From IMG/VR virus record IMGVR_UViG_3300035208_004396: DNA of 64,000 nt, one strand, 5' to 3'. Made by a program: the position numbers and the translations under genes. Under the pieces are notes generated by a model that was not told where the DNA came from, did no database searches, and worked only from the letters and a program-made list of their open reading frames with translations. Positions 20,675 through 52,330 of the stretch are shown here, one piece after another. Numbering within the stretch: position 1 is the first letter of the stretch; each line of letters starts with the position of its first letter. The stretch comes from a virus (lineage: Duplodnaviria > Caudoviricetes).

Positions 20675-20842
20675 AAGAATAGACAAACCTTTTCTATCTT
20701 AGTACCCCCCTCCTATAGGTTTTATACTATATAAAAAAGATTCCACCTCTCCCTACCCAACTATAATGTATCTATCAAGAAATATGTGGACTTTTTCCGA
20801 TGTAAAAATCACTTGGTTTCTTACTTAGAGTAAGGACGGATC
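20675..20842 (+). repeat. 168-bp non-coding dispersed repeat, copy 1
   Basis: Matches 52163-52330 except 3 substitutions and 2 single-base homopolymer indels. Confidence 0.95.
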
Positions 20843-21075
20843 ACTTCTGTAGCTTTTGTAAACATATTTTTACATATTTGTAATTAAAATATAATGATAT
20901 ATGTTATTTGGTTTTTTCGATAGGGTAGTATAATTTTTATGAATATATGAGTTTATCTCGTATACCAGTTTAATTTGAGTTTAACGCCTGTTTTAGACCG
21001 TTATATTATATTTACGATATAGTTTTATAGGTGTATTATAAAAACGTATTAAAAGTGCCTTAAAATGCAAAATAA

Positions 21076-22491
21076 ATGTTGATAAATAGAATGATGGCAA
21101 CTAAGATCAACATTCCGGAAGGTTTCGAATTAAAATCGGAAGATTTGTATAAGCAATATTCGGAATTTTATAAATCTAAACCTTTCATGAATTGGCGTTA
21201 TAGTGTAAAATTCATGAATAAACAAGGTGTTGAATTATGTAATGGCATGTTAACTTATCTAGTTAAAAACATAACGATGCCAGTTACAACATTAAATAAA
21301 GTTACGACCAATTATAAAACTTATGATTATAATGAAGTTTTCATTTCACCCGGATCGAGAAGATTAACATTCGGATTATATGAAAATGAAAATCTAGATG
21401 TGTTAAATTTCATAAAATACTGTATGTTCGGAGAAAATCGAGATAATTATTCATTTTATGACGATTTTATGCCCCCAGAGATCTATATCCGGATTGAAAT
21501 AGAAGATATATGGGAAGATAGAACAGATGCTGATCTAAGAATGGACGATCTGTTAAACCCTAATTATTGTACTCCTTATACTCAACCCGTTAAGAATGTT
21601 ATTGATGTAATAAACAAGTATAATGAAGTTAAACCAGAAAAATTAATCGAAAACTATGTTAATGTTAACAATGGCAACGAAACTAAACTTAAATTCAACA
21701 AAGTTTTGAATTATACCTGCACTTATTGTGATTTCAGTAAAGATAAGTTATCTACTGATAGTGCTATGGTAGATGGTTATTCTTTGACTTTTGTGATAAG
21801 GTCTGAGACAATAGGTTTTGATATAGGCAAAGCTGGTGAAGGAGGATTACTCGATAAAGATATCAATTTGGAAGCCAGAATATCTAAAAAGAAGATGAGC
21901 CTTGCTGGTGGTGTAGATGTAAACAACATTAAACATAAAGGCTTCGGTAGTATGAGTGGGGATTTAAATGGTAGTTATGAAACAATTGCGAGTGGTTATG
22001 AATCTTGGCTAAACGGAACCGGACGAGAAAGAAATCTCGAAAGTGCTCATGCTTATCTTTTAGCTACCGGTTATATAACTAAAGCTTATGATGACAGTGC
22101 TAATGGATTATGTGCTAGAGGTGTAAGTGTCATGACGAATTTAGCTTCAAATAATAAGAGTTATGTTAATATAGGTGCTAATAATGGTAAAGGTGAAGCT
22201 TCATTATTAGCCGAATCGAATGAATTTAGTCAAAAGTATACCCCAAAGACAGTTACGGATTCAGAATATCGAAATATGGTCGCCAATGGTGAGATTAAAG
22301 CTGGTACAGTAGTATCTTTATCATATTCTAATAAGAGTGGAGATAAATGGGTAAAATCTTCAAATGGTCACACTTTTGTATGGATTGACAGCAATCATAC
22401 AGCATCGGATTACGAGCAAAAATCAACTTATGGTTTGAGTTTAACTAATAAGAAGATCGATAAGATAGTTTTAGCAATTCCTACGACTTAG
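21076..22491 (+). CDS. Tail-tube-fold (gp54/gp19-like) protein fused to a C-terminal CHAP-like Cys-His hydrolase
   Basis: N-term RYSVKF...VKNITMP...LTFGLYE; C-term GLCARGVS ... GHTFVW ... SDYEQ. Confidence 0.55.
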   Translation: MLINRMMATKINIPEGFELKSEDLYKQYSEFYKSKPFMNWRYSVKFMNKQGVELCNGMLTYLVKNITMPVTTLNKVTTNYKTYDYNEVFISPGSRRLTFGLYENENLDVLNFIKYCMFGENRDNYSFYDDFMPPEIYIRIEIEDIWEDRTDADLRMDDLLNPNYCTPYTQPVKNVIDVINKYNEVKPEKLIENYVNVNNGNETKLKFNKVLNYTCTYCDFSKDKLSTDSAMVDGYSLTFVIRSETIGFDIGKAGEGGLLDKDINLEARISKKKMSLAGGVDVNNIKHKGFGSMSGDLNGSYETIASGYESWLNGTGRERNLESAHAYLLATGYITKAYDDSANGLCARGVSVMTNLASNNKSYVNIGANNGKGEASLLAESNEFSQKYTPKTVTDSEYRNMVANGEIKAGTVVSLSYSNKSGDKWVKSSNGHTFVWIDSNHTASDYEQKSTYGLSLTNKKIDKIVLAIPTT

Positions 22492-22990
22492 TTTGATCCA
22501 TTATGAATTTTGGTAACTCGTAAGTTTTCTTAGTTAAACCAGCATCTGTTAAATGTTGAATCAAATCTTCTCGGTTCATGACATAAGTGTTATTTTGGAT
22601 ATTCTGTGCATTTTGAACTGAACTTTTCTTTTTATTTACTATATCATCTTTTATTTGATAATCTGTTAACATTTTGTTAAGAGACAATAATTCTTGAATA
22701 TTTGATGTTATAGCATTGCTTATTTGGGTGAAACTCATGAATGTTCCCGGCGGAGCACCTATTTTGCATTGCATTGCAACATTTTCAAGCACATTTCTAT
22801 TTAGATCTATTAAGTTTACTAATTGTTCGCGTATATATTCTTTATCTTGTATATCATATTTTTGAGTTTTGAACTCGGTTATTTTATTTTTAGTTTCTTT
22901 TATTTTAATCGCTGCTTCTTCGAACACTTCTTTTTCTTCTGTATGTTCAGGAAGTTCGGATAAATTGAATTCATCATCTAATTTTGACAT
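22481..22990 (-). CDS. gp16: Terminase small subunit, T4 gp16-like
   Basis: D.EYIRE.L..LI....VLE.V, P..F...Q, L..L.K, NNTYV...DL pattern. Confidence 0.75.
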   Translation of the reverse strand: MSKLDDEFNLSELPEHTEEKEVFEEAAIKIKETKNKITEFKTQKYDIQDKEYIREQLVNLIDLNRNVLENVAMQCKIGAPPGTFMSFTQISNAITSNIQELLSLNKMLTDYQIKDDIVNKKKSSVQNAQNIQNNTYVMNREDLIQHLTDAGLTKKTYELPKFIMDQTKS

Positions 22991-23637
22991 ATAAACTCTT
23001 TATACGTTGTATTTATAAGATTATTATTTAATCTAGATCGTTTAATTAAATAAATATCCCCTTCATCATAATCGTTAGAATCAAATAAATCGAAAACTAA
23101 TAATGGGTAAACATCAATTATATTTTCAAATGCTTTAGCTTGATCTTTTACTGTAAAATCGTGTAAGTCATTAAAAATCAATAACTTACGTTGTTTTATA
23201 CCACTCATTTTAATTTGATATATTTGATCATTCGAATAGTTTTTAGGGACAATAGCAATTAATGGTGAACATGAATTTTTGATAATGTCTATGTCATCTA
23301 TTTTAGATTGGTCTAACTCTTTCATTATTTTATAAATAGGATTCAACTGATCTTCGAAAAGCATTCCTAGATATACTGAATCTAACTTATTTCTTTTGAA
23401 TATAGCAGTTTGTGGCATACCAATATGACCAGTAAGTTCATAAATAGCATCTTTTTCTTTTTGCAAGATACATTCTACGAAATATAAGGAATTAGTTTCA
23501 ATATCGGCGATTTCTTTCTTATAATCCTCACAGATTTGACAAACATCGTTTACGAATATAAACACACCATGTTTTATCTCCATATTATAAAAGGCATCAA
23601 AATTCAATTGATGTTTAACTAAGATTTCTTTTCTCAT
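22978..23637 (-). CDS. Thioredoxin-like protein
   Basis: FIF...CQIC CxxC and cis-Pro-like GMPQT. Confidence 0.55.
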   Translation of the reverse strand: MRKEILVKHQLNFDAFYNMEIKHGVFIFVNDVCQICEDYKKEIADIETNSLYFVECILQKEKDAIYELTGHIGMPQTAIFKRNKLDSVYLGMLFEDQLNPIYKIMKELDQSKIDDIDIIKNSCSPLIAIVPKNYSNDQIYQIKMSGIKQRKLLIFNDLHDFTVKDQAKAFENIIDVYPLLVFDLFDSNDYDEGDIYLIKRSRLNNNLINTTYKEFICQN

Positions 23638-23679
23638 AATACTCCGAAGTTATCGAATATATATGAATAAGAGGATATT

Positions 23680-25872
23680 ATGATTGTAAAAGACGGGAAA
23701 ATTATAGCTATCGGTAGAATAAATCATGATGAAAGTCTTGTTGGTGATGGTGTTAGCTCCGATTTGGGAATATCTGAATCATATAAAAATGTTTTTTCGT
23801 CCTATTTGAATCACAGTGCTACTTGGGATAACAAAATTGATAGTTCTTTTCTTTTAGATTACTCGGCTTTTGTAAATTATTCTAATTTAATGGATCAAAA
23901 CTTATCTAGCAATATCGATAATATCGCAAGCTATATCGATAATAACTCTGCAATCTGGACTAAAGATACTACTTACAATGGTAGTGAATATATCAATGTT
24001 GATAGTGCTATAAGTTTAATAAAAATACCCGAGGAAATAGCCACTATTTCTGGTATTCAAACTAATCTTTCTCTTAATTTAACTGAATTATCTGGTTATA
24101 CTTATCAAAATATAAATGCTTTATCGAGTGATATTTATCAACTTTCATCAGATATAATATCATTGAGCGGTGAATTAAACACAGTATCTGGAAAAATACC
24201 AGAATTATCTAGCAATATAACAAACATATCATCGAAACTAAATGAATTTTCTGCTGATGTTAGTGAAAACTTAAATACTATCTATGGAAATATTGATGAT
24301 CTATCTAGTCATGTTTCAGAAAATTCGGTAAACATAGATAAAATTTCTGGCGAAATTGATACTATTCATGGCAATATAGAATATTTATCTTATGATGTTA
24401 GTAATTTATCAAGTGAATTAATTAATAAACAAGATATAATTTCCGGTGGACAATATATCAATGTTGATAAAAACATAGTTTCTTATACTGGTCCTATTTA
24501 TAATAATGCTTTCTATAGCGGAACAGATCTTTTAGGTTATTTAGTCAATAAAGGTGTAAATGGCCAGATTTTAAGCATGTCAGGTGATAATTTCGAATGG
24601 ACTGAACAATCGAAAATAGCTGATGTTGAAATATATGGTTATGATGGCATTAATGTAAATTCTAGTTATAGTGGAAATACCTTGATTTTCGATATATCGG
24701 GTAGTACTAATCCAGAACATGTCGGATTTATCGAACTTAACACTAATTTAAGTGCAATATCAGCGAATCAAGATATTTTGGATAATATATCAGTAATAGA
24801 TAATTATCTTTATACTGTTTCGGACAATAAAATAGTAATACCTAGTGGTACTTCTCAAATATGTGTTAATGTCAATGCTAAATTTACTCCTACCGCACAT
24901 AATACATCTACATTATATGAATTCGGGATAGATTTGCTAAATAGTCAAGCTGAAGTTTTATCTAATCAGTCTAAATTTGCTTTAACAAGTGGTTCAGATG
25001 TCTTATCTTATTCAAAATTAGTGAAATTAGACAGTTCTATAGAAAATTCTATCTATTTTAAGTTTGACGGTGATAGTAATCAGTTCGAATTGAATTCATG
25101 TCTCATCGATGTTTATGAGAATAAAACTGGTTCTAGTGAAGGTACTTCTGATACTTACGAAGTTAAAGTATCAAGTTCGGGTACAGCAGGATATTTGAAA
25201 GATAAAATGAATACTATTGCCCCGATACAAAACAGAATTGAAAATGACAAATATGTAATATATCAAGATCCGATTGGGGCTTCACCACTTTCTCGTATTT
25301 CTACTCCGGAGAGTGATAATGTTAGAGAGGTATTGAATGTTGTTACTAATGGTATAATAAAAGGCGAGAAAATTGCTATACAATTGCATGCATTCACGGT
25401 AGGAAACTATTTTGTACCAGAAAATACTGATATTTGGACTTATATTAATACTAATATACAGGGTATTAGTGAAGAAACTGTACATTTCGTGGGCATATAT
25501 GAGTTAGATGAAGAAAATCAGACATTTCATCTTGTAGCAATGAGTGTTAATGGAGCAAGTCACGATAATAGTGTAATAGGTTTAGCTAGTTTAGATACGG
25601 GATATGTAGATACAACTTATAATACGATTAAACCGAGTAAAATATATTATGCTTTTCATGCTTGTGATCAAACCGCATTAACTATAGCAGGTAATACTTC
25701 ATCTACTTATAATTTAGTAAATCCTTATATGTCATTAATAATTTACAACATATCTAATGCTTTAACAATATCCGATTTTGTTGCTAATTTAGCTACTATT
25801 AATATCTCAACTACAACTCTTTCTCATCAAGAAAGTACGGGAAAGAGATATCTGAGTTTACAACATATATAA
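23680..25872 (+). CDS. Tail fibre-like structural protein
   Basis: 730 aa, Ser/Asn/Ile-rich; SLVGDG; coiled-coil LSS/ISG repeats; KQD..ISGG..I.V; GQIL motif. Confidence 0.65.
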   Translation: MIVKDGKIIAIGRINHDESLVGDGVSSDLGISESYKNVFSSYLNHSATWDNKIDSSFLLDYSAFVNYSNLMDQNLSSNIDNIASYIDNNSAIWTKDTTYNGSEYINVDSAISLIKIPEEIATISGIQTNLSLNLTELSGYTYQNINALSSDIYQLSSDIISLSGELNTVSGKIPELSSNITNISSKLNEFSADVSENLNTIYGNIDDLSSHVSENSVNIDKISGEIDTIHGNIEYLSYDVSNLSSELINKQDIISGGQYINVDKNIVSYTGPIYNNAFYSGTDLLGYLVNKGVNGQILSMSGDNFEWTEQSKIADVEIYGYDGINVNSSYSGNTLIFDISGSTNPEHVGFIELNTNLSAISANQDILDNISVIDNYLYTVSDNKIVIPSGTSQICVNVNAKFTPTAHNTSTLYEFGIDLLNSQAEVLSNQSKFALTSGSDVLSYSKLVKLDSSIENSIYFKFDGDSNQFELNSCLIDVYENKTGSSEGTSDTYEVKVSSSGTAGYLKDKMNTIAPIQNRIENDKYVIYQDPIGASPLSRISTPESDNVREVLNVVTNGIIKGEKIAIQLHAFTVGNYFVPENTDIWTYINTNIQGISEETVHFVGIYELDEENQTFHLVAMSVNGASHDNSVIGLASLDTGYVDTTYNTIKPSKIYYAFHACDQTALTIAGNTSSTYNLVNPYMSLIIYNISNALTISDFVANLATINISTTTLSHQESTGKRYLSLQHI

Positions 25873-25876
25873 GTAT

Positions 25877-26191
25877 ATGGAATTTAACAATAGAAATACG
25901 GTTTTTAATAATCCCAGTTCATATTCGAATGAAGTTTACACAATTGCATGTAATTATTCTGGCCGTGATTATAATAGGCAGCTCGGTAAGCTAATTATAG
26001 ATGAGTTATTAGACAAAATGAGTTCGACCGATGCAACAGAATTCATATCTTATGCTAATGTATTAGTATTCATAACGAACGGCATGTTTTATTCAAGTGC
26101 AAAATACTTAGACAATATAACAGTTAGCTCAAGTTTGCAAACTACTTTGACTTGGTTAAAAACTACATTAACTAATTCTGATTCGATATAG
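25877..26191 (+). CDS. Hypothetical protein, possible fibre chaperone
   Basis: 104 aa immediately downstream of the fibre gene. Confidence 0.45.
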   Translation: MEFNNRNTVFNNPSSYSNEVYTIACNYSGRDYNRQLGKLIIDELLDKMSSTDATEFISYANVLVFITNGMFYSSAKYLDNITVSSSLQTTLTWLKTTLTNSDSI

Positions 26192-27893
26192 TAGAAAATC
26201 CACTATTTTTCTCTATTTTCAAAATGGATTTGAATGTTTCGTTATGCGTGTCTAATCTATGAGAAATCAGATAACAAGATTGATTTTTTATCATAATTAA
26301 AGAGTTTAAAGACTTTAATAATGCATCTATACCTTCATTATCTATACCGCTATCGAATAATTCATCGATGAATAAGATATTGGTATTCCAATTTGCTAAA
26401 TCTCCACTTAAATTCAAGAAAGCTAATAATATACCCATATCGATTCTCGTTCTTTCTCCACCACTGAACTGATTATATTCGATATTTTCACCACGTAACC
26501 CAGTAATAACATAATCCAAATTAGAATCGAATTTAACTTGTACCTTGACTGATAAATTATGTAAATTTTTATTTACAATATTATTGAAAACATTTATTAA
26601 TTTTCCAAACAAGAAATGACGTATTCCATCTTCACTTGTGATACGAAAAACATTATCTATTATTACACATTCTTTATTTTTATCGGTTATTTCTTTTTTG
26701 AAAGAAACTATATCAGTATTTAATTTCGATTTAATAGAATTTTCTTTTTCAAGAAGTTCGGATAGATCTATTTCAGATTTTGTTTTTCTTAGTTTCTCTA
26801 TTTTAGATAAATTATCCGATATTTTAGCTTCACCTATTGTAATAATATTATTACAATCGGAAATTATCTTCTCATTTTTAACATTATTTTCTTCGATTTT
26901 ATTCAAATCACGTAAACTCGACTGATCTTCATTCAATAATTTAAGTAAACTATCTCGTTCTTCTATTTTACTATCTTTATCTTGAATATGTTTATCATCT
27001 GTTAATATATTACCGCATACTGGACAAGAACCTTTATCTAATACAGACAAATAGATATCTATTTTTGAAATAGACACTGTTAAATTATTAATTTCATTTT
27101 GTAACGTATCTTTTTTAGATCTAACATCTATAATGTTAGAAGTTGCAATTTTAGATTTTTCACGAAATTCACTTAATATCTTGGTATTTTTCTCATTTTT
27201 TTCTATTAAATCACCAATTTCTTTATCTCGTAGAGATTCTGCTTTATTTTGATTAGTTAAAATAGTCTGGTTTATATTAGCTATACTAGTATTAGTTAAA
27301 TTTAACTGATTTTCGGCATTTTCCAGATCTTTCATAACAAGTGTAAGATTTTGTTTAGCAATGATGTTTTCTCCCTTTATAGCTTTTTCAATTTTTCTCA
27401 AAATTGCTAAATTGAATAGATTTTCTACTAGTTTATTACGATCGGTATTGGATAAACTTAAAAATGGTTGATTATATGTAGTAGCTACGGCTACAATATT
27501 CTTAAACAAGAAAGAATCTATACCTATTATTTGATCTAGATCGGTTTGAATCAACTTTTTAGTAGATGTCAATGCAACTTCTACACCATTTTTTTTATAA
27601 CTCAATAGATCAGGTTTTTGTCCGCGTATAATTTCATAATGGTCATCACCTTTTTTGAAAAACACTCTACAAACCATATTTTTCTTATTTAATGAATTAA
27701 CTAAACTAGCCAATTTAATATTTCGGTAAGGTTTTCCATATAATGCAAAGAACAAAGCATCTAAAATAGAAGATTTACCCGAACCATTTTTAGCAAAAAT
27801 GATATTTATTCCTGGTTTAAAATCTATTTCAGTTTCATTATTACCATAAGACAATATATTACGAAAGATCAATTTTTCAAATTCAATGTACAT
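26172..27893 (-). CDS. gp46: SbcC/Rad50-like recombination endonuclease subunit, T4 gp46-like
   Basis: FRNILSYGN, NGSGKS Walker A, CPVCG hook, FSGGE signature, LFIDE, ISH. Confidence 0.93.
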   Translation of the reverse strand: MYIEFEKLIFRNILSYGNNETEIDFKPGINIIFAKNGSGKSSILDALFFALYGKPYRNIKLASLVNSLNKKNMVCRVFFKKGDDHYEIIRGQKPDLLSYKKNGVEVALTSTKKLIQTDLDQIIGIDSFLFKNIVAVATTYNQPFLSLSNTDRNKLVENLFNLAILRKIEKAIKGENIIAKQNLTLVMKDLENAENQLNLTNTSIANINQTILTNQNKAESLRDKEIGDLIEKNEKNTKILSEFREKSKIATSNIIDVRSKKDTLQNEINNLTVSISKIDIYLSVLDKGSCPVCGNILTDDKHIQDKDSKIEERDSLLKLLNEDQSSLRDLNKIEENNVKNEKIISDCNNIITIGEAKISDNLSKIEKLRKTKSEIDLSELLEKENSIKSKLNTDIVSFKKEITDKNKECVIIDNVFRITSEDGIRHFLFGKLINVFNNIVNKNLHNLSVKVQVKFDSNLDYVITGLRGENIEYNQFSGGERTRIDMGILLAFLNLSGDLANWNTNILFIDELFDSGIDNEGIDALLKSLNSLIMIKNQSCYLISHRLDTHNETFKSILKIEKNSGFSTISNQN

Positions 27894-28359
27894 AACTATT
27901 ACCTGGTGTTGCTACAATTTCGATAATCAATCTCGTAGTTTCATCCAGATCATATTCCGGCAATTTATTATGCATTAAATACTCGGTTAAAACTACTGTT
28001 TTTTTCAAGAAAACCGCTAAATTTACCTTTTGTGCTTTATTAAGATCTTCGTATAAATCCACTTCATTGCACATATTAGGTATATTCATAATGGGCAATT
28101 TAATTAAAATAGAATCTTTTTTTAACAATTTCCTAGTCTCTTTACTTACACAAGAACGATCTATTTCTGGCATATATCCAGATTGATCTAGAATAAAAAT
28201 AGAAGCTGGAATATCATTAGTAGGATATCCAAAAAAGAGATTATTTTCCAATAATCCCCAATGATAATTTTCGTAATCTTTAACCAAATATTCTATCATA
28301 ACTCTCATACTAATCGAATATGTAATATGTTCATCATTCTCAACATTTTCAGTTTTCAT
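27883..28359 (-). CDS. Hypothetical protein
   Basis: 158-aa ORF overlapping the gp46 start. Confidence 0.55.
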   Translation of the reverse strand: MKTENVENDEHITYSISMRVMIEYLVKDYENYHWGLLENNLFFGYPTNDIPASIFILDQSGYMPEIDRSCVSKETRKLLKKDSILIKLPIMNIPNMCNEVDLYEDLNKAQKVNLAVFLKKTVVLTEYLMHNKLPEYDLDETTRLIIEIVATPGNSYVH

Positions 28360-28408
28360 ATAATTAAATATATTAAAATTCGGGGATAATTTTCGTTATA
28401 TATACAAT

Positions 28409-28792
28409 ATGCAATCATTTATAGCGTACTTGAAAGAACAATTGTTAAATGAACAACCTCATGTCGAATTGATACCCAGTGAGGACCAATATTGGGATTT
28501 TTGTGCTGAAGAATCATTTTCGCCAAAAGATATGGCCAATGGAGGATGGCTTAAGCAATTATATAACATTTATCACGATAATGTGGTAATATCTTTAAAT
28601 AAAGACAAAAACAAACCAACTGTGTTGAAATTGGATCCTAATGAAATCGATGAAATAACAGATCAACTAAAAAATGATGTTTTCTTCATAAATAGAGTAA
28701 AAGCAGATTTTGCTAAGACTAATGATAAATTTCGAGAAAAATTGATCGAAGTTCTGCCTTACAAACTCTATATAAAAATAGGTAAAGCATAA
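28409..28792 (+). CDS. Hypothetical protein, possible internal head protein
   Basis: MQSFIAYLKEQLLNE N-terminus resembles those of T4-like packaged proteins. Confidence 0.55.
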   Translation: MQSFIAYLKEQLLNEQPHVELIPSEDQYWDFCAEESFSPKDMANGGWLKQLYNIYHDNVVISLNKDKNKPTVLKLDPNEIDEITDQLKNDVFFINRVKADFAKTNDKFREKLIEVLPYKLYIKIGKA

Positions 28793-30918: not shown

Positions 30919-30967
30919 AAAATTGCTGATATATAATGTATATTTTTAAAAATTTAGGAGTTAAGAT

Positions 30968-31198
30968 ATGATTGATTATAATAGTAATAATACAAGTAGC
31001 ACTGATAGCACTACCTATATTTTTAATGCAGTTCGGGCTTTGAAAAGTGCCATTTATGAACGTATCGAAGAAGTTAAGAAATTCGAACCACCTAAAGATG
31101 GTACAGCTACTAAGAAGGAAGAAGAAGCATATAAAAAGGGCTATCTTGAAGCATTAACTGATATTACAAAGATAATGCACGAACAGAATCTTCTTTAA
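30968..31198 (+). CDS. Hypothetical protein
   Basis: 76 aa; AGGAG RBS; terminator follows. Confidence 0.6.
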   Translation: MIDYNSNNTSSTDSTTYIFNAVRALKSAIYERIEEVKKFEPPKDGTATKKEEEAYKKGYLEALTDITKIMHEQNLL

Positions 31199-31203
31199 CA
31201 ATT

Positions 31204-31229: not shown

Positions 31230-31242
31230 AATAAATATAAAC

Positions 31243-31617
31243 ATGATATTTGGTGATTTAATAAAATTAGCTGAAGCTAAATTAGAAAAAGATAATAATG
31301 TTATTGACTCTAGAGGGGTTGAATTAGTCGATTTTGTAAATAAAACCGAACAAGGAAAATGGTATAAATTCGTAAAGGATGATGTTTATTTAGTTTATAA
31401 CAAACATTATCTCAATATGACTAAGTTACATAACGAAATTATAACAGTTTATAGTCTTAAAGGCTATATAGGTTTAGGTATGTCGAAATTGAGTATAGAA
31501 CAATTATTACGTTATTCTGGAGTGAGATTGCTCATAAAACCATTTTTTCTCGATATAAATCAGAATATAGACCCCAATGTTGTAGCTAATATGTTATTAA
31601 GAAAAGAATATATATGA
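31243..31617 (+). CDS. Hypothetical protein
   Basis: 124-aa ORF. Confidence 0.55.
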   Translation: MIFGDLIKLAEAKLEKDNNVIDSRGVELVDFVNKTEQGKWYKFVKDDVYLVYNKHYLNMTKLHNEIITVYSLKGYIGLGMSKLSIEQLLRYSGVRLLIKPFFLDINQNIDPNVVANMLLRKEYI

Positions 31618-31643
31618 AAATTGCCAGTCTAGATTTATCTATT
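31588..31643 (+). repeat. 56-bp direct repeat duplicating the RuvC start region (copy 1; copy 2 at 31964-32019)
   Basis: AATATGTTATTAAGAAAAGAATATATATGAAAATTGCCAGTCTAGATTTATCTATT vs AATATGTTATTAAGGAAAGACTATATATGAAAATCGCCGGTCTAGATTTATCTATT (4 mismatches). Confidence 0.85.
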
Positions 31644-31953: not shown

Positions 31954-31989
31954 TAATATTACGAATATGTTATTAAGGAAAGACTATAT

Positions 31990-32652
31990 ATGAAAATCGC
32001 CGGTCTAGATTTATCTATTACTAGTAGTGGTGTATCCATTTTAACTATTTCAGATCACTTCGATGTTACAAATGTAGAAGCTTTTGGTTTCACAGAACAT
32101 CGTAAATATTCAACTAATCATATAATTTTCTATAAAAATGACGATTTCCGTGATCATTATGACAAGTTTTTCTTCATGTTCAAATACATTTTAGACTGGG
32201 TAAAAGATTGCGATTATGTAGCCGTAGAAGATTATGCTATGGGTTCAACTGGCGCTACTGGTATGATATTCGATTTAGGTGAATTTGAAGGTTTCATCAG
32301 ATTAAGTTTATTCGAACAACGAAAAAAGCTAAGATTTTATGCTATAAATTCGATCAAAAAATTCTGGACTGGCTATGGTTTATCTGATAAAATTTCAATG
32401 TATAATGCATTTATAAATTTTAATGGTATAAAACCTGACATTTCGCAATTTAAACCAGTAACTAATGGTCATGGTTCGAAAACAATATCCGATATAGTAG
32501 ATAGTTTTGCTATAGTAATGATGCTTTTAACCGAACTACAATACCGAGCTAAGATTAAAACTATTACTAGTGATGTCGATAAAGCTATTTTCTTGGGTTC
32601 TAAGAAAAATACGGGAATTTTAGCTCACGATTTTATCGAAAAGCTTGAATGA
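31990..32652 (+). CDS. RuvC-like Holliday junction resolvase
   Basis: AGLDLSITSSG, VAVEDYA, DLGE, IKKFWTG.G.SDK, DIVDS. Confidence 0.85.
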   Translation: MKIAGLDLSITSSGVSILTISDHFDVTNVEAFGFTEHRKYSTNHIIFYKNDDFRDHYDKFFFMFKYILDWVKDCDYVAVEDYAMGSTGATGMIFDLGEFEGFIRLSLFEQRKKLRFYAINSIKKFWTGYGLSDKISMYNAFINFNGIKPDISQFKPVTNGHGSKTISDIVDSFAIVMMLLTELQYRAKIKTITSDVDKAIFLGSKKNTGILAHDFIEKLE

Positions 32653-34595: not shown

Positions 34596-34599
34596 TTAT

Positions 34600-42955: not shown

Positions 42956-42989
42956 AAATTCCTGTGTTTATGACACAGGAATTTCAAGA

Positions 42990-44438: not shown

Positions 44439-45091
44439 CTAAGCATTCCTTTTTTGAAATTTTCTGGTATTTCATTATCGGTTTTAAACATCTTATTTTT
44501 AATACCATCATTATACCAATAATACCCTTTGGTTGACATCCTTTTATCTTTTTGTACTACATCTGTACGTCCACGTACAAAGCCTTCTGGTATTTCATCA
44601 GTTTCTTTAAGTGTGATGTTAATAACAGTATTTGTATACCATTTCCTTCCATACATAGCATTTCCTTTACCAAACCTTTGCCCAGTTCTTCTCATAGTTT
44701 CATTCGATTTAGCTGCAATCAATCTAGAATTATTAGCATTTATAATTCGTAATTCTTCAAATTCCTTTGGTGTAATTCTAATTTTATAACCACTTTTTGG
44801 AGAATGTGCTTGATAATGCCAGGCTTGAGCATGTTGCCTAGTTGGAATTGCTTTGTATAACAAATGATGAGCAATAATATGTTCTTTTGCAGTAAAAAAT
44901 ACTAAATTTTCTATACAATTAGAACCTCCATCACACACTGGTATAATATGATGTAATTCTAGATATTTAAAATTGGTCTCATTATAAATGATACCTTTCA
45001 AATTTCTCAAACTTCTGGTACGTGAATAAAAATAATTAAAACGTATCTGTGATTTTTGGCATAAAGCATCATAAATATGTTTATAATTCAT
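44435..45091 (-). CDS. HNH homing endonuclease (T4 Mob-like) inserted within nrdD
   Basis: ELHHIIP..DGG.N..ENLV..TAKEH..AH; GNAMYG and WY.DG/N repeats; ATGA overlap with IntC. Confidence 0.88.
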   Translation of the reverse strand: MNYKHIYDALCQKSQIRFNYFYSRTRSLRNLKGIIYNETNFKYLELHHIIPVCDGGSNCIENLVFFTAKEHIIAHHLLYKAIPTRQHAQAWHYQAHSPKSGYKIRITPKEFEELRIINANNSRLIAAKSNETMRRTGQRFGKGNAMYGRKWYTNTVINITLKETDEIPEGFVRGRTDVVQKDKRMSTKGYYWYNDGIKNKMFKTDNEIPENFKKGMLR

Positions 45092-45213
45092 ATAGTTTTA
45101 CTTTATAAAAAGAGTATTCCGGGTTCTCAATTTTATTTATAAAATATAGGTCTGATCCAGGAAAAATTGCCAGACTTACAGAAAGTGAATAGTATGTACC
45201 TATATTCATTGAA

Positions 45214-46710
45214 TTATTTTCCGTTTACACGAATTTTTAAAGTTTCTTCTCCGTCCGCGCACCCCATAGTAGCAATAGTAGTGCCTGGAATCAGTTTTTT
45301 GATGTGAATTTCACCATTATCAAAAGAATCCAATTGATATAATATAGATCCATCTAAATAATAAGCATTTTCGAACTTTTTAGGTTTTTTCAAGTGTTCT
45401 ATGGTATAATCTAGATCCCCGAACTTAAAGTATCTTACTTCATAATTATCATCTTTTTTATTAACTTTAATGATTTTTTCATCATATTTTATGTAAGGTT
45501 TATTAAATGTAGAATCGCAGTTAACAAAATTCGGATAAAATCTACGAGCTAAACACTTAATAGCATCTAGATAAATATCATAATTTGGATCGATTTCGTC
45601 TTTATTTACACCACGCATCAATTTGAAGATCAAAATAGGGAATATAGCAGTTAAGCCGTCTCCTAGTCCTTCGTATTGTGATTTAATCAAGTTTATAGAA
45701 ACCATACGACCACAATTCGAAGTGTCGAGTCCGAAGTTCAAACTAGAAAAAGGAACCTGATTGCCCGAACGTGATTGTAATGAGTTCAAGTTACCTATAA
45801 GAGCTTCCATAGCTTGATGAGTGTCTAGGTTAGTCTGCTTAATAGCATTATTAACGATTTTCACATTGAATTTGCGATATAAACTGCCAATAGGTTCGTT
45901 AAGTGAATAATCATTAGTATAATCTTGGTAAACACCAGTATATTCGACATAAGAATCAAATTCTTTTTTCAAATTGTGATGAAATGACTTATCTACGAAT
46001 GGAGCTAAATCGAAATCTAAATTGTCATCAGCAATTCCTCCGAACTGTTGATTAGATTGTAATTGTAAAATTACAGCTGTAAGTGCACTGGCAGTTTGTA
46101 TTGAACTAGGAGATCTAAGAAATCCAGTCCCTGTGTCGAAACCATGTTCTAGTAGTTTACCTACTGGAGCGAACAGACAATTGAATGAAAGATTATAAAA
46201 ATTCAGATCGTGAATATGGATTCTTCCCTCTTTATGTTCAGTAGCATATTTACGATCTATATCATTCAATAGATTATACATTTTGTTAGTTTCACTAGCG
46301 ATTTTACCATAAGTACCGGCTGGAGTTGCTCCGGCTTCGTTAGCATTATCTCTTAAAATGTTAGAACTTTTCAAATCGGATTCGGTAATTTCTTTAATTG
46401 TCTTAACAATTTCGGATTTAGTAGTTCTGACTCGATTACGTTCTTCTCGATATAAAATGAATGATTTTGCTGCTTCTTGATGTTTAGCCATCAAAACATT
46501 TTCTACAATATCCTGAATTTCTTCAACTTTTAATGTGTTTTTAGATGAAAGTTCTGCTTTTTCAATAACATCATCTGTAAGTTCATCTAACTCATTTTCA
46601 GTAAATTTAGTATTAGTCTCAACCAAAGAATTCTTTATAGCAGTTACAATTTTAGTCGGATTAAATTTTCTACGTCTACCATCTCTTTTAATTACTGTTT
46701 TTATTGTCAT
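45214..46710 (-). CDS. nrdD: Anaerobic (class III) RNR N-terminal piece ending in IntN
   Basis: ATP cone VIKRDG, NANE, IHIHDL, FNC, QFGG, NSLQSRSGNQVPFSS, IFPILIF, YPNF, ATMG then CADG... Confidence 0.93.
   Translation of the reverse strand: MTIKTVIKRDGRRRKFNPTKIVTAIKNSLVETNTKFTENELDELTDDVIEKAELSSKNTLKVEEIQDIVENVLMAKHQEAAKSFILYREERNRVRTTKSEIVKTIKEITESDLKSSNILRDNANEAGATPAGTYGKIASETNKMYNLLNDIDRKYATEHKEGRIHIHDLNFYNLSFNCLFAPVGKLLEHGFDTGTGFLRSPSSIQTASALTAVILQLQSNQQFGGIADDNLDFDLAPFVDKSFHHNLKKEFDSYVEYTGVYQDYTNDYSLNEPIGSLYRKFNVKIVNNAIKQTNLDTHQAMEALIGNLNSLQSRSGNQVPFSSLNFGLDTSNCGRMVSINLIKSQYEGLGDGLTAIFPILIFKLMRGVNKDEIDPNYDIYLDAIKCLARRFYPNFVNCDSTFNKPYIKYDEKIIKVNKKDDNYEVRYFKFGDLDYTIEHLKKPKKFENAYYLDGSILYQLDSFDNGEIHIKKLIPGTTIATMGCADGEETLKIRVNGK
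45217..45261 (-). other. Split intein N-fragment (IntN, 15 aa: CADGEETLKIRVNGK) of NrdD
   Basis: Intein block A-like C1.DG.T immediately after MG, then stop. Confidence 0.85.
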
Positions 46711-46841
46711 AAACCTCTTTTCTCTTTCCTTATTATTTTAGAATTAAATATATTTATTATTACTTCTATCAAAATGTTGATTTTCTCTACACAAAAAAGA
46801 CCAATGTTTAACATTGGTCTAGAATATGTTTTTTGATCTTT

Positions 46842-47684
46842 TTAATTGAACATATCCTGAATATCGGCTTCTGTAGCAACTGTACCCTTAGTATCAGCAC
46901 TATCAATATTTTCAGGTGTATCCTTTTCTTCTATGTGTCCAATAGGAAGATGAATACGAGCAGTATAACCCTTACAAAGTGATTCATAAGTGTCATGATT
47001 TTCGGTGAGATTAGCCAATGGTTTAATCTGTTTAGCAATAACTGTTAGTTGTTCATCAGTCAAAACTACACCATTCTTATCTGAAATAGGACCAGTCTTT
47101 CTCTTGAACTTATTAGGGATTATTCCACCTTTATGACTCTTGTCGTATTTGTAGATGAAATCGGCACCATTAGTCGGGCTGAAAACATCGATTCCCTCTA
47201 CCAATTCATCAGTTTCATCATCATCATGAGGCTTGGCAATTTCTTTTATAACATTCATCGTGGCTTCAGTAAATTTATAACGGAAAACCTTACCTTCGGT
47301 AGTAGGAGCAGTAGGATTCTCAACTATATAAACATTAGCAATATATTCATTCTTAGCCGGGCCAATTACAGTACGTTGCTTGGACATATCTTCGCCCTTT
47401 TTCTTGAGTTCGAAATACTTTTCACAAAGTGGACATTTGCCCTTATCTTGAATACAATTTCCAACGAAAAATGGTGCTCCTTTAATTCCGCTGCCTACAT
47501 AATGTTTACGAAGCTTAACAAACGGAAAATCTTCTCCCTCTGGGGGCGGCAAGAAACGAAGAACAACTTTCGTTTTACCTTCAGCATTATATGTGTATTT
47601 GAATAAATCTGATAAAGAACTATGACTTGGTTCTTCAATCTTATCTAAAACTTTTTTTGCATCATAACTCGAAAAAATAGGCAT
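46842..47684 (-). CDS. gp32: Single-stranded DNA-binding protein, T4 gp32-like
   Basis: VLRFLP, PFV...H, C.....CPLCE, YIANVYIVENP..P..EGKVF.Y.F, GADF. Confidence 0.9.
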   Translation of the reverse strand: MPIFSSYDAKKVLDKIEEPSHSSLSDLFKYTYNAEGKTKVVLRFLPPPEGEDFPFVKLRKHYVGSGIKGAPFFVGNCIQDKGKCPLCEKYFELKKKGEDMSKQRTVIGPAKNEYIANVYIVENPTAPTTEGKVFRYKFTEATMNVIKEIAKPHDDDETDELVEGIDVFSPTNGADFIYKYDKSHKGGIIPNKFKRKTGPISDKNGVVLTDEQLTVIAKQIKPLANLTENHDTYESLCKGYTARIHLPIGHIEEKDTPENIDSADTKGTVATEADIQDMFN

Positions 47685-47725
47685 AATGTGTTACTCCTTG
47701 TAAATAAATCGCCTTATAACAAAAT

Positions 47726-48277
47726 TTAGAATAAAAATTTATCCGATTCATCTAGAATGATGTGTTTCGTTATGAAATATTCAGAAAAATTCAAATACTT
47801 CCTCATTTTGTTAGTTTTATATATTTCCGGTACATTGACATTTTTTAGCACTTTCAAAAAAAACAAAGGACTTAGTTTTTCACGTATGGTTTGTAAATAT
47901 AAATCTGTTTTTAATGGATTTTTATCCTGTTCTTCAAACATACCAGCCTTGTTCGATTTAATCTTCGAGAAATCTGATTTTATACTCGAAAAATGTAAAT
48001 ATGATATATTTAACAGTTTATTATAAGTATTATAATCCCCAATTTTCATTTTAATTTTGTGAAAATAGTTATATACGATCAAATAATCTAGAATACGGGA
48101 ATCAAATCTAGCCGAATTTATCTCAGAACAAAGATAACTATATTTAGACCAATCTTTTGGATGACTCAATGTTCTAGGTGTTAAACGACATTCTGGTATA
48201 GAAAAACAATCTGGTTTTTTACACAGATTATTTTCTACCCATTTAAGATGTCTTCCTAAATCAGCGCTTTCCAGCAT
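47726..48277 (-). CDS. Hypothetical protein (position of T4 gp59 helicase loader)
   Basis: Basic 183-aa ORF directly upstream of gp32; function positional only. Confidence 0.4.
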   Translation of the reverse strand: MLESADLGRHLKWVENNLCKKPDCFSIPECRLTPRTLSHPKDWSKYSYLCSEINSARFDSRILDYLIVYNYFHKIKMKIGDYNTYNKLLNISYLHFSSIKSDFSKIKSNKAGMFEEQDKNPLKTDLYLQTIREKLSPLFFLKVLKNVNVPEIYKTNKMRKYLNFSEYFITKHIILDESDKFLF

Positions 48278-48656
48278 TTTCGCTCTTAATTTTGAATGAA
48301 TTATACTTCTGTAAGATATTTTTCATTAAAAAATCTGCCGAAACGAAATCTTCAACTAAATATGAGCAAATAGTGGTCATTTTTATATCCTGTTCTACTG
48401 ATATCTTAGATAAAACGAAATTGAATTTGTCAATCTCATCGAAATTTTTCAATTTCAGTTTCGCCATAAATTTAGGCAATCTTGCTAAACCACTATCAGG
48501 ATCCTCTACATTAATAGGACTAGAATAATCGACATCGTTTACATCATAACCATATAGTTTTAGTAATTTATAAAAATGAGCTTTGTCTTGTTCATGTTCG
48601 AACTGAGCATTTTCATCAGTTAATACATCATCGTCAATAAATAGATCATTCATCAA
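48261..48656 (-). CDS. Hypothetical protein (position of T4 gp33)
   Basis: 131-aa ORF upstream of the gp59 position; function positional only. Confidence 0.35.
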   Translation of the reverse strand: MMNDLFIDDDVLTDENAQFEHEQDKAHFYKLLKLYGYDVNDVDYSSPINVEDPDSGLARLPKFMAKLKLKNFDEIDKFNFVLSKISVEQDIKMTTICSYLVEDFVSADFLMKNILQKYNSFKIKSENAGKR

Positions 48657-49264
48657 TAATTGCTCCGTTGTCTGAATTTATTAACATAATTCTTTCTAGA
48701 ATAAAAGTCGAACAACTCAATCTCATCTTTGAAGATCAATAAACCGAAATTGAGCAAATGTTCATAAAATTTTACAATTCTCGAATTGAAAGTGGGGATA
48801 TCAGTTAAAACTCGTTCGGATTTCCAATCTTTACACTTTAAGCAATTACAACCAGAACAAAGATAATAAATGTTTTCCATTACATTTTCACCATTAAATT
48901 CTCGATAATATGAATTTTCGAATACTTTATCATCGAATTTATCTTGAAAACCTAAGGAAATTATCAATTCACTAGCAAATGCTAAAGCATCAGAATATTC
49001 TTCTTTTCTATGCAATTCATTAGATTTAGCCATCATCATTTCTACTAATTCTTCAATAATACAATAAGCATACCATTTAATAATGACTTGATCTTCAGGT
49101 TTATTCAAATCTAAATTACGATGTAAATGCATAGAAGTCGTAGTATTATTATTTTGAATTGCAATGAAATTGTCCAATAATGCGTCTTGGGCATTAATAA
49201 TTCCCTGAACTACACCTTTACTAATATCCATCTTATTTTTAGTTTCTTCACTTGTAACGTTCAT
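48653..49264 (-). CDS. All-alpha NTP pyrophosphatase, dimeric dUTPase/dCTPase (T4 gp56-like)
   Basis: EELVE, EEYSDAL.F, K.WK, Y.RKN.VN.FRQ.SNY. Confidence 0.8.
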   Translation of the reverse strand: MNVTSEETKNKMDISKGVVQGIINAQDALLDNFIAIQNNNTTTSMHLHRNLDLNKPEDQVIIKWYAYCIIEELVEMMMAKSNELHRKEEYSDALAFASELIISLGFQDKFDDKVFENSYYREFNGENVMENIYYLCSGCNCLKCKDWKSERVLTDIPTFNSRIVKFYEHLLNFGLLIFKDEIELFDFYSRKNYVNKFRQRSNY

Positions 49265-49788
49265 TAAAGCACCCCATATCTTTTAAGTAAATCTATTGCT
49301 TTTATAATACCAAAAACTTCTTCTTGTTTATCACATGTCCAATCATAATGAATAATATTCATCTTTTTTTCATATAATTTATGACTATAATCAAGATATT
49401 TATCGATCAATTTGTCAATATTTTCTTTAATTCCTGCCATTTGTTCTCGATCACCCCAATTAGTAATAACCGATTTCGGTGGCATACAAAAGATAAATAA
49501 GTCTATTCTAGACAAAAATCTATTTACATCGATAAAATTAGTGTCCATTAAATCTACATTTCTTAATATCGGCCCATTTACAGACTCTTCTATTACCGAA
49601 AAACGATCGAAAATGAGATTAGACTTGGTTTTTTTAGCATTATTCAATGTAATATCTAGATAATCGAGATACTCTTGTGAAGTTTTACCTGCTCCTAAAG
49701 ATCTAACATATTGAAAACCCAAATCTTTAATTTGATTAGCTAAAGTCGTTTTACCTGAATTATCGGGTCCAAAAATAACAATATTCAT
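49264..49788 (-). CDS. dNMP/thymidylate kinase-like P-loop kinase
   Basis: GPDNSGKTT, IFDR, E.V.G..LR. Confidence 0.85.
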   Translation of the reverse strand: MNIVIFGPDNSGKTTLANQIKDLGFQYVRSLGAGKTSQEYLDYLDITLNNAKKTKSNLIFDRFSVIEESVNGPILRNVDLMDTNFIDVNRFLSRIDLFIFCMPPKSVITNWGDREQMAGIKENIDKLIDKYLDYSHKLYEKKMNIIHYDWTCDKQEEVFGIIKAIDLLKRYGVL

Positions 49789-49803
49789 ATTTGATTTACC
49801 CTA

Positions 49804-50493
49804 TTAAAAGATATTTTCATCGAAATTCTTACGATAAGTATGCAATGAGAAAATGGTCTGTTGATAACTACCAACTTCGAAACCAAGTTCAGCAGCAACA
49901 AACTCCAATAATTTAATGCCCAGATAAACATCATTACAAAAATGAGTATATAAATCACAGCTTCGCATCACATTATGCATGTTCAATTTATCATTTCGAT
50001 ACTGGAAATGATAACCTAATGTACAGGGTACTCGACCAACACCACCCAACTTATTAGGGTCTTCATTCGGATCCCATACAGATAACCAACCTTGTCGCGT
50101 ATTAGGATCATTTTCGAATGCTTTAATCAATTTATCTATTTGATTATTACGATTATATCTACCGTTATATGTATAACTCATCTTGCCATTTACTAAGAAT
50201 TCCTCCCAAACATCATTTCTTAATTTATATGCTTCCCCTGGATTAAGATCTTTTTTACTGATTCTTTCTTCAAATTCGGCATCTGCCCAAGGTTGAGAAA
50301 CATTAGTAATCTCATTAGATTTGGCATTTAGCAATACATAGGAGTAATTCTGGATTTCCTTAGTAATAAACATCGGATTACCATCGATTATCTTATTTTG
50401 CATCGATTTAGTCTTAATAGTTATACCATTTTCGGAAAGATCTCGCTTAATTTCATCATAAGCTTCGGACCAATTTGAATAAAATCTGGCCAT
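49804..50493 (-). CDS. Thymidylate-synthase-family enzyme with dCMP-type specificity residue (dCMP hydroxymethylase/methylase-like)
   Basis: TRQ, VPCTL, MRSCDLYTHFCND, SLHTY; Asp at the position of T4 gp42 D179 / E. coli ThyA N177. Confidence 0.75.
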   Translation of the reverse strand: MARFYSNWSEAYDEIKRDLSENGITIKTKSMQNKIIDGNPMFITKEIQNYSYVLLNAKSNEITNVSQPWADAEFEERISKKDLNPGEAYKLRNDVWEEFLVNGKMSYTYNGRYNRNNQIDKLIKAFENDPNTRQGWLSVWDPNEDPNKLGGVGRVPCTLGYHFQYRNDKLNMHNVMRSCDLYTHFCNDVYLGIKLLEFVAAELGFEVGSYQQTIFSLHTYRKNFDENIF

Positions 50494-50576
50494 ATTTTAA
50501 CCTCAATTTAAAAATAAATATAGTGAAATAATTCATATTTAAAACGATGAATAGGCATTCTTGATGTCCATTAAAA

Positions 50577-52112
50577 TCAGTATAAACAAGATAATGAACG
50601 AATTAACGAAGATCTTTTGACTTTTAGTTTTTTGATTAAAAATTGTTGTTTCAGCTTTGACATATTAGAAAATACATCAAGATTTATGTTATGAGATAAA
50701 AGATAATCTGAAAGATTTGACCGGTGATGTTTATGTTTCGATATTAAATTGTATTCTTTTTTGAAATAATAATACTGTCTTTTAATCGTGTTATCTCGCC
50801 AAATAGTATATTTTTTAGCTAAACTGATGAATTTTTCTCGAGTAAAATCCGAATTTAGCATATTTAACTGCATTCTAAGATTCTTTTTGGAAAATCTCGG
50901 TCTATATTCAGTTAAAACAGAATAATCTTCTATATTATCTAATTCGGTTTGAAGTTTTTTAACCCTAGCAAGTTTTTCATAACATAGTCTGAACAGCGAA
51001 TCATCTGAATGGTCTTTTTTGAATGAAATTGGATCATTTACTCGATAAGTCGCATAGTATTTTGCTGCTTTATAAAGATGAGCTACAGTATATTCGAATG
51101 GTATGTTTTCTTGTTTCAATAGATTGTTGTAACCTATTATGTTGATAGCTAACCTATCTACGAAACCACATAGATAATTGTGTCTATGACCACTCATTAT
51201 GCTTTTAGTAGCTAAAACACGTGTATGTGGTACATTTTTATAACATTTAGCTGGTAAATTGAATTGTTTTAAGACACGATTGATTGAAAAAGGAAGATTT
51301 TCATTACAATTATAAGCTTTAGATCTATCATCGAAATATGTGCTCCAATCAATTTCATCATGAGTTATTATTTTATGATTGTCCCAGTTCAAATTATGTT
51401 TGAGATATACAGTTTTCCTTACATATTTAGATAAAACATAATCTAAACCCATTCGAGATAAAACATCACCAATATTAGCATAAATACCGATGTTATCATC
51501 ATAAATCGAAGATTCTTCTGGTTTTACTGGTTTCCCATAAGTGAGTTGAAATAGATTCGAAATATATGACGTATCGAAATCTATATGACTATGAACTTCA
51601 TATAGATCACCATTTTTAACATTTTCTGAATTTTCTTCGAAATTACTGATTTTACCAACTAAATATCTTATTCTGCCTTGTTTACTAACAACTCTTCTAT
51701 ATGTAACATTTTTATAAGGATAATCACTAATGATCAATTTATGAGATTCGACATAATGATGCCAGAACTCTTCTCGTTCACATTTAATTTCAAAAGGCAA
51801 CGGATAAAATAACTTGCATTTATATCGACCACTACCAAAACTAGGGGATCTTACTACTTTTTTACCATATTTTGAAACTAAGTAATCATAAAATGATTTA
51901 TCTGCCCAGTCAAAATCATAAACTAAATACTTGGTTTTATAATTATAATCCGGAAATTGTCTGAGAAATGGCAATCCTGCATTATAAATCTTTACTAAAT
52001 CATCTACACTACTTAAACTAACTAGATAAGTATCACTAGAGATCCAAATCTTAGAATTTATCTTACTAAGCTTCTTATCTGAAAATACGTTAAATATATT
52101 TACGAATTCCAC
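50577..52112 (-). CDS. Putative AEP primase-polymerase/Rep-like protein with PriCT-like region
   Basis: LVYDFD (motif I), RSPS...K..LFY (motif II-like), IDFD (motif III), GHRHNYL (PriCT-like), basic C-terminus; GTG start. Confidence 0.5.
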   Translation of the reverse strand: MEFVNIFNVFSDKKLSKINSKIWISSDTYLVSLSSVDDLVKIYNAGLPFLRQFPDYNYKTKYLVYDFDWADKSFYDYLVSKYGKKVVRSPSFGSGRYKCKLFYPLPFEIKCEREEFWHHYVESHKLIISDYPYKNVTYRRVVSKQGRIRYLVGKISNFEENSENVKNGDLYEVHSHIDFDTSYISNLFQLTYGKPVKPEESSIYDDNIGIYANIGDVLSRMGLDYVLSKYVRKTVYLKHNLNWDNHKIITHDEIDWSTYFDDRSKAYNCNENLPFSINRVLKQFNLPAKCYKNVPHTRVLATKSIMSGHRHNYLCGFVDRLAINIIGYNNLLKQENIPFEYTVAHLYKAAKYYATYRVNDPISFKKDHSDDSLFRLCYEKLARVKKLQTELDNIEDYSVLTEYRPRFSKKNLRMQLNMLNSDFTREKFISLAKKYTIWRDNTIKRQYYYFKKEYNLISKHKHHRSNLSDYLLSHNINLDVFSNMSKLKQQFLIKKLKVKRSSLIRSLSCLY

Positions 52113-52162
52113 ATATCAAATCTAATCAATATTAGAATTCATTTTCGTACACATTAAGATTG

Positions 52163-52330
52163 AAGAATAGACAAACCTTTTCTATCTTAGTACCCCCTCC
52201 TATAGGTTTTATACTATATAAAAAAAGATCCCCCCTCTCCCTACCCAACTATAATGTATCTATCGAGAAATATGTGGACTTTTTCCGATGTAAAAATCAC
52301 TTGGTTTCTTACTTAGAGTAAGGACGGATC
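52163..52330 (+). repeat. 168-bp non-coding dispersed repeat, copy 2
   Basis: Near-identical to 20675-20842, same orientation. Confidence 0.95.

Follow-up and report, generated by a model that had tools for sequence, protein, structure and literature searches.

Bacteriophage T4 fires at least five replication origins, several of the active ones lying at points of transcriptional divergence; its origin promoters combine a sigma-70-type -10 element with an activator box at -30, and minimal oriF and oriG consist of a middle-mode promoter and a downstream unwinding element (PMC3016281). T4-type genomes also carry mobile regulatory cassettes, the promoter-early stem-loops (PeSLs), in which a stem-loop and a near-consensus -35/N17/-10 promoter precede a Shine-Dalgarno sequence with its start codon; dozens of copies occupy hyperplastic regions (PMC2839356, PMC4122927). 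Here we describe a noncoding element of 168 bp that occurs twice in a 64,000-nucleotide stretch of phage DNA (IMG/VR record IMGVR_UViG_3300035208_004396; this whole stretch is called the window). Judged by alignment with copies in related contigs, the 168 bp are only the best-kept part of a noncoding module of ~215 bp, which is predicted to be present at least four times between genes in this T4-like genome. The module may be an autonomous, promoter-driven unit acting as a transcription-primed origin of the T4 ori(uvsY)/ori(34) type. This function is ranked first because the predicted layout matches that of minimal T4 oriF and oriG, and it is held tentatively, as the leading one of several possibilities rather than as a probable function.

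Pairwise alignment matches the two copies (designated copy 1 and copy 2; Table 1) at 164 positions, with 3 substitutions and with one-base length differences in 2 homopolymers, C6/C5 and A6/A7. Each copy lies in a long gene-free gap (20580-21075, 496 bp, and 52113-52735, 623 bp), beyond which a minus-strand open reading frame (ORF) starts 96 nt from copy 1 and 51 nt from copy 2. The palindrome CCTATAGG is present and is confined in the window to the two copies, the hairpin CTTACT-TAG-AGTAAG occurs in both, and 4 of the 11 window sites of ATCACTT fall within or shortly downstream of them, all on the + strand. The repeat with its 3 substitutions and 2 indels, its setting in gene-free gaps, the palindrome, the hairpin and the recurring ATCACTT had been described in a first-pass annotation of the same DNA and hold. 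Homology that was missed there continues for ~235 bp further right at much lower identity. Copy 2 recurs in four other metagenome or IMG/VR contigs and copy 1 has flanks and variants of its own, and a duplication produced by the assembly is therefore unlikely. A profile built from six family members recovered the two copies at E 7e-81 and 5e-68 and found no third copy in the 64-kb window, with nothing beyond the two at E <= 1; the chance expectation of a 19-mer of the element in the window is 0.00.

Further copies exist in relatives. Pattern scans of IMG/VR and JGI metagenomes, in which five of eight metagenome matches were chance, found them in three loci, L010, L011 and L014. The copy in L010 lies upstream of a baseplate-hub gene and those in L011 and L014, which are orthologous loci, upstream of a tail-tube gene; none of the genes beside these three copies has a homologue in the window. 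These copies are 90-95% identical to the element, and over the whole family the core (the 168-bp part) has pairwise identities of 90-98%. No new distant copy was found in GenBank phages by DNA or protein, and none in IMG/VR by protein and four DNA patterns, where L021 and L022 were chance matches. The sole match in GTDB genomes, in a metagenome-assembled genome of 60% G+C, was also chance, and a profile search of the window and the loci found no truncated or decayed copy.

In copy 2, L010, L011 and L014 the conserved unit reaches ~20 nt further left and ~45 nt further right than the core. The right extension (designated ext) is 87% A+T and 88-95% identical among these four, and it is diverged in copy 1. 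In L011 and L014, core and ext fill nearly the whole gap between two divergent genes, so that the minimal unit is ~215 bp and independent of its neighbors. Each of the flanking genes there has its own TATA-type late motif next to the start codon, and the module is therefore not needed as their promoter. This defines what appears, from the compared loci, to be an autonomous module of ~215 bp. Of the four locus types, three are intergenic regions between divergent genes.

The copies clearly keep exchanging sequence by gene conversion. Copies 1 and 2 are 98% identical and sharply bounded within flanks that are only distantly alike, and they share derived states relative to the other family members. 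L011 and L014 are 95.8% identical overall and in their flanks, yet 90-92% identical in the core. The core of L011 is 94.6% identical to that of its paralogue L010 as compared with 90.4% to that of its orthologue L014, and an 8-nt variable patch of L011 is L010's version. The copies therefore exchange sequence in patches. The 168-bp near-identity reflects, on this comparison, recent gene conversion across one tract of an older intergenic cassette of ~0.4-0.6 kb that had itself been duplicated, and the near-identity of copy 1 and copy 2 is no sign of stronger selection on those bases. A recombination hotspot that could drive gene-order scrambling had been considered previously; of this, recombination is borne out as gene conversion between copies, but the element does not interrupt the collinearity of orthologous loci in other contigs, and the scrambling is not borne out. 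Active gene conversion between dispersed noncoding copies in a phage is a caution against equating the near-identity of repeats with strong selection.

Read along its C-rich strand, the module comprises, in order, an inverted repeat (hp1), C-tract 1 with CCTATAGG, TATACTATAT, an A-run, a C-rich box, TATAAT, the hairpins hp2 and hp3, and ext. The C-rich box lies at -14 to -33 of the putative promoter, in place of a -35 hexamer, and ~85 nt between TATAAT and the A+T-rich tail can be folded into the two hairpins. Variation is limited to small patches, namely homopolymer lengths, a trio in the -35 area (positions -32, -29 and -27 relative to the putative promoter), a trio around the expected start site, the hp2 loop, whose closing pair varies among CG, AU and UA, and outer hp3. 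TATAAT and the preceding 13 bases are invariant in six sequences except for one A/C position. The single large indel, of 33 bp (about three helical turns), is in L011, just upstream of the A-run. The minus-strand G-run GGGTAGGGAGAGGGGGG noted previously is present in copy 2 but not in copy 1, and the G-quadruplex suggested for it is not conserved, since its third and fourth G-runs are variable positions; a long G-run occurs only in copy 2 and its orthologues, and the corresponding sequence is GGTGG in copy 1, GAGG in L010 and GGAGG in L011 and L014.

At an origin of the T4 type, RNA polymerase would start a few bases past TATAAT, probably with help from a phage factor specific for the C-rich box. 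The transcript would proceed through the hairpins into easily melted DNA and, remaining annealed there, would serve as primer for the leading strand in the manner of T4 ori(uvsY) and ori(34). We infer this promoter, its transcript and the origin function from sequence and by analogy with T4. The segment 20859-20908, starting 17 nt past the core of copy 1, ranks second in meltability among the 50-mers of the window, and the best 100- and 200-bp stretches of both cassettes have melting ranks above the 99.8th percentile. The first-pass annotation had already proposed replication origins, recognized by the protein encoded beside copy 2. The origin part of that proposal gains from the conserved multi-copy module, its position at divergence points, the meltable DNA and the promoter-like core, but recognition by the 511-residue neighbor is not supported (see below). 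The cumulative GC-skew minimum at ~52 kb coincides with copy 2 but merely tracks a switch in gene orientation.

Several observations weigh against an origin. The putative promoter lacks a recognizable -35 hexamer or extended -10, a known activator was not found for it, and a sigma-70 scan did not flag the site. TATA-rich hexamers are common in the window, which is ~30% G+C; its 75 matches of 10/12 or better make sigma-70 scanning uninformative. Most intergenic regions of this DNA are about equally easy to melt, and the putative promoter of copy 2 would oppose the surrounding leftward transcription. Between the orthologous loci the core is more diverged than the flanks (90-92% as compared with 95.8%), and the sequence is therefore not unusually constrained. 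Folds of single sequences do not exceed those of shuffled sequences in stability on either strand (z -0.2 to -1.3), and the covariation described below comes from just six closely related sequences. Finally, the origins of T4 share no sequence motif with one another (PMC3016281), and a family of homologous origins would therefore depart from T4.

Table 1. Positions of the module copies, their parts and neighboring features in the window
Feature	Position	Strand	Remarks
Core copy 1	20675..20842	+	C-rich strand is the + strand; 98% identical to copy 2
Core copy 2	52163..52330	+	Orientation as copy 1; orthologues in L001, L002, L003, L013
hp1 inverted repeat AAGAATAGA ... TCTATCTT	20675..20700 (copy 2: 52163-52188)		Left edge; 10 pairs, 8 invariant
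C-tract 1, then palindrome CCTATAGG	20705..20719 (copy 2: 52193-52206)	+	Invariant in six members except for homopolymer length
C-rich box GATTCCACCTCTCCCTACCCAAC, then TATAAT (20762-20767)	20739..20767	+	Copy 1; TATAAT invariant
C-rich box and TATAAT (52250-52255)	52225..52255	+	Copy 2
hp2 stem GTGGACTTTTT / AAAAATCAC	20786..20812 (copy 2: 52274-52300)	+	Encloses the 8-nt patch that differs between copies
hp3 CTTACT-TAG-AGTAAG	20820..20834 (copy 2: 52308-52322)	+	11-pair stem with G-U pairs, C-rich strand only
A+T-rich ext	52331..52370	+	AAGTTTACA in ext can pair with TGTGGACTT of the core
Diverged right part of cassette 1	20843..21075	+	Homologous to 52331-52562
S unit, cassette 1 (TTAACGCC ... 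TATAGT)	20981..21023	+	Points away from the core, towards the gene 21076-22491
S unit a, cassette 2 (TAGACA-N16-TATAGT, 10/12 matches)	52510..52550	-	Points towards the core
S unit b, cassette 2	52637..52679	-	Points towards the core
Intrinsic terminator	52711..52729	-	Ends the 162-residue gene (52736-53224), just upstream of S unit b
Examples with TATATA upstream	4495, 6804, 12932-13717, 28409, 34600, 52736-53224		
242-residue ORF	19851..20579	-	Function not assigned; start faces copy 1
511-residue orphan protein	50577..52112	-	Start faces copy 2; first gene of a minus-strand run

Next in rank, though on balance doubtful, is a small noncoding RNA gene of ~110-170 nt in several copies, transcribed from the C-rich strand and acting in trans or antisense to the leftward leader of copy 2 and L010. 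Such an RNA could (i) start at TATAAT, with a short unpaired 5' end and two hairpins enclosed by a helix formed with ext, or (ii) start further upstream, with the CCUCC-containing C-tracts inside the RNA. On the C-rich strand the right half has the same predicted fold in four locus types, in which a 9-bp helix, UGUGGACUU/AAGUUUACA, closes hp2 and hp3 by pairing core with ext. Among the six close sequences 95% of the cells of this fold are paired, and four pairs are changed on both sides as compared with 1.4 in shuffles, 4 of 500 of which reach four compensatory pairs; on the opposite strand one pair is changed on both sides. Two pairs of the hp3 helix (helix 6) are changed on both sides, and one is broken in two sequences. 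G-U pairs, three of them in hp3 and two in the closing helix, can form on the C-rich strand only, the 8-nt variable patch falls in the loop region, and the closing helix would explain the conservation of ext, which is otherwise without obvious reason. These features hint weakly at a transcript from the C-rich strand, for which the origin reading also calls. On the other hand, no covariance model of Rfam 15 reached its gathering score anywhere in the window, and over 52100-52740 only chance-level matches were obtained (E of 0.8 or more). An intrinsic terminator was found at neither end, the fold energies are those of shuffled sequences, and ext and the closing helix are lost in copy 1. An RNA gene would also leave the equally conserved upstream 100 bp unexplained, and for a phage it would be expensive to keep one small RNA in four or five scattered copies. 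The structured RNA that the first-pass annotation had offered as an alternative is weakly supported, by the C-rich strand alone.

That the module is a DNA-level control site or an untranslated leader for neighboring genes seems unlikely. As a control site, it would be a cluster of binding sites for phage proteins (the three small inverted repeats and CCTATAGG) that switches or insulates adjacent late genes. As a leader, at copy 2 and L010, its G-rich strand would form an extended 5' leader driven by promoters in the right part of the cassette, with purine tracts resembling Shine-Dalgarno sequences that stabilize the mRNA or hold ribosomes. The candidate promoters belong to a 65-nt conserved block (designated the S unit), in which TTAAC.CC and TATAGT are separated by 27-29 nt and which includes TAGACA-N16-TATAGT and a T-rich upstream part. 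Outside these cassettes and L010, L011 and L014 the block was not found, and S units look like strong early promoters, as far as their sequence can tell. Cassette 2 and L010 have two each, aimed through the core into the leftward gene, and at copy 2 a terminator lies just upstream. Copy 2 and L010 share the entire 0.6-kb cassette up to the start codon, before unrelated genes, and the hp1 edge of the core and the start of an outward-pointing gene are always 32-96 nt apart. The G-rich strand contains AGGAGG, and at position 52238 it has the strongest predicted complement of the 16S rRNA tail in the window, at -16.6 kcal/mol; the remaining Shine-Dalgarno-like sites do not outscore many sites in coding sequence. 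However, a gene pointing away is found with either orientation in divergent regions, and the orientation of the S units to the core is not fixed: they point towards it at copy 2 and L010 and away from it at copy 1, and the two of L011 and L014 lie beyond the tail-tube gene and are aimed at its other strand. The core is therefore a separate module. Moreover, the neighboring genes have promoter motifs of their own close to the start and differ in kind, being genes for the tail tube, the hub and nucleotide metabolism.

In cassette 2 there are a 35-nt direct repeat (52535-52569 and 52664-52698) and a 14-bp tandem duplication (~52600-52627), and the S units sit partly within a large imperfect palindrome. 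A general promoter class was rejected as an identity for the C-rich box and for the TTAAC.CC...TATAGT unit, neither of which was found elsewhere in the window. The late-type motif [AT]TATATAG in the core was rejected as diagnostic, with 17 occurrences in the window of which 10 are in coding sequence. In this DNA the motif TATATA is enriched 12-fold within 25 nt upstream of start codons and is placed either 10-16 nt before an ATG that lacks a Shine-Dalgarno sequence or 22-25 nt before one that has it. It looks like a T4-style late promoter, and its placing would imply leaders that are very short or absent.

A repeat without a function of its own is improbable; it would be left over from the duplication of regulatory cassettes, or would be selfish or mobile and maintained by recombination like a PeSL, and would matter chiefly as a substrate for homologous exchange. 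The concerted evolution is clear, as seen in the near-identity of copies 1 and 2 and in the L011 core that is nearer to L010; the same cassette stands before different genes, and the small hairpins near both edges recall miniature elements with hairpin ends. Against this, every block of the 168 bp is intact at 90% or more in all five locus types, no transposase or homing endonuclease was noticed among the neighboring genes scanned, and the collinear orthologous loci have no visible breakpoint at the element. Direct repeats 31.5 kb apart also risk lethal deletions, so that their retention suggests a benefit. Very improbable, finally, is a module RNA that would mimic one Shine-Dalgarno partner and shift translation from Shine-Dalgarno-dependent host and early messages to late ones, a thought that draws on the invariant CCUCCU and the GAU..CACCUC-like tract of the C-rich strand, which resemble the 3' tail of 16S rRNA, on AGGAGG and AGAGGGGGGAUC of the G-rich strand as what would then be very strong ribosome-binding decoys, and on late messages whose TATATA promoter is a few bases from the start codon, often without any Shine-Dalgarno sequence.

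Other identities were tried and rejected. A coding element was discarded because the homopolymer indels shift the frame between copies and a 53-residue ORF of copy 2 is not kept, and the template and variable repeats of a diversity-generating retroelement because the differences are not adenine-specific and both copies lie outside genes. No tRNA or tmRNA was found. The core contains no iteron array, the TTAACRCCTGTTTWAG sites lying outside it at one to three per cassette, and an iteron origin with a linked initiator was rejected because the copies are neither all linked to an initiator nor hold arrays of direct repeats.

The protein of 511 residues encoded next to copy 2 opens a minus-strand run of genes that extends to ~35.7 kb and includes genes of nucleotide metabolism. 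The label of prim-pol or Rep-like protein given to it by the first-pass annotation could not be confirmed, as it has no match in Pfam, PHROG, PDB sequences or primase and Rep folds. Its AlphaFold model is poor (mean predicted local distance difference test (pLDDT) score 46), and two fold searches gave generic helical matches only. Its language-model neighbors in the ESM Atlas include clusters named as primases, which is a lead only. It falls into three clusters (100%, 87% and 48% identity) among 5.8 billion proteins and has one representative among 1.8 billion; the tail-tube protein likewise has three clusters only among the 5.8 billion. The 511-residue protein carries a YDFDW motif. Because the other copies adjoin unrelated genes (baseplate hub, tail tube and the 242-residue ORF), an element dedicated to this protein is not supported. 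A protein of 229 residues in the same region (49804-50493, minus strand) has a weak, partial thymidylate synthase match (Pfam 1.6e-14, PHROG 1e-30). It may be a deoxynucleotide hydroxymethylase, in which case the DNA would be expected to be modified.

The recognizable genes of the window include those for a head-closure protein, a thymidylate-synthase-like enzyme, a thymidylate kinase and the large subunit of topoisomerase II, and the source is probably a very large, deep-branching and uncultured T4-like phage. No close cultured relative was found among GenBank phages in DNA and protein searches. CheckV gives 8% completeness for 25.0 kb and 9% for 33.4 kb, the IMG/VR fragments behind L001 and L002, and these percentages imply a genome of roughly 300 kb or more for the lineage. 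Elsewhere in the window a 56-nt direct repeat, 93% identical (31588-31643 and 31964-32019), covers the upstream region and the first codons (MKI/A..LDLSI) of two neighboring plus-strand ORFs, which are probably paralogous small genes sharing a start region. A 120-nt direct repeat of 73% identity (10785-10904 and 11357-11476) lies amid short minus-strand ORFs, in a region where 2.25 kb (10680-12931) have no ORF of 120 residues or more; this run of short ORFs looks like a cluster of small paralogous genes. A gene of 415 residues (61605-62852) is 99% identical in contig Ga0172378_10000524 (window 61021-62870 as compared with L011 12703-14128). That contig lacks ~410 bp (window 61130-61540), its sequence past 62870 is unrelated, and 11.6 kb of other genes separate the 415-residue gene from the tail-tube copy of the element; the difference may reflect either strain mosaicism or a rearrangement.

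To our knowledge, replication origins in T4-like phages have been mapped experimentally only in T4 itself. If the module is an origin family, the number, spacing and evolution of origins could be read from sequence in a T4-like lineage, and the 215 bp would be a defined test piece for assays. Among known systems, the ColE1 primer RNA II is a folded RNA made from a promoter, in which the structure and G/C-rich contacts with the template decide whether a persistent priming hybrid forms. It belongs to a single-copy plasmid system without sequence similarity to the module, and in the module the G-rich strand is not the putative transcript. The homologous regions (hrs) of baculoviruses are dispersed noncoding repeats of large genomes that have been proposed to recombine with one another and to serve as origins and enhancers; in contrast to the module, they are tandem imperfect palindromes of eukaryotic viruses, unrelated in sequence and architecture. 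PeSLs resemble the cassettes more closely, as repeated noncoding units of T4-type genomes that stand before unrelated genes and serve as substrates for homologous exchange, and the S units of cassette 2 are preceded by a terminator as in the PeSL layout. The core itself was rejected as a PeSL: it has no -35/-10 pair of 9/12 or better, it ends 32-96 nt before the start codon of the gene, it contains C-tracts and three inverted repeats, and its copies number only about four or five per genome (two in 64 kb and one per related locus). The closest likeness is to T4 oriF and oriG, with which the module shares a T4-like phage, several units per genome at transcriptional divergence, and a size of roughly 100-200 bp; a putative sigma-70-type -10 element, with a special box where a -35 element would lie, and A+T-rich DNA downstream, a candidate unwinding element, may be further points of likeness. 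It differs in that (i) its copies are 90-98% identical and exchange sequence, whereas T4 origins have no sequence in common, (ii) its box is C-rich and not a MotA box, with no activator known, (iii) ~85 nt of conserved, hairpin-forming sequence lie between promoter and meltable DNA, and (iv) ~100 bp upstream are also conserved, the origin role being here a prediction from sequence.

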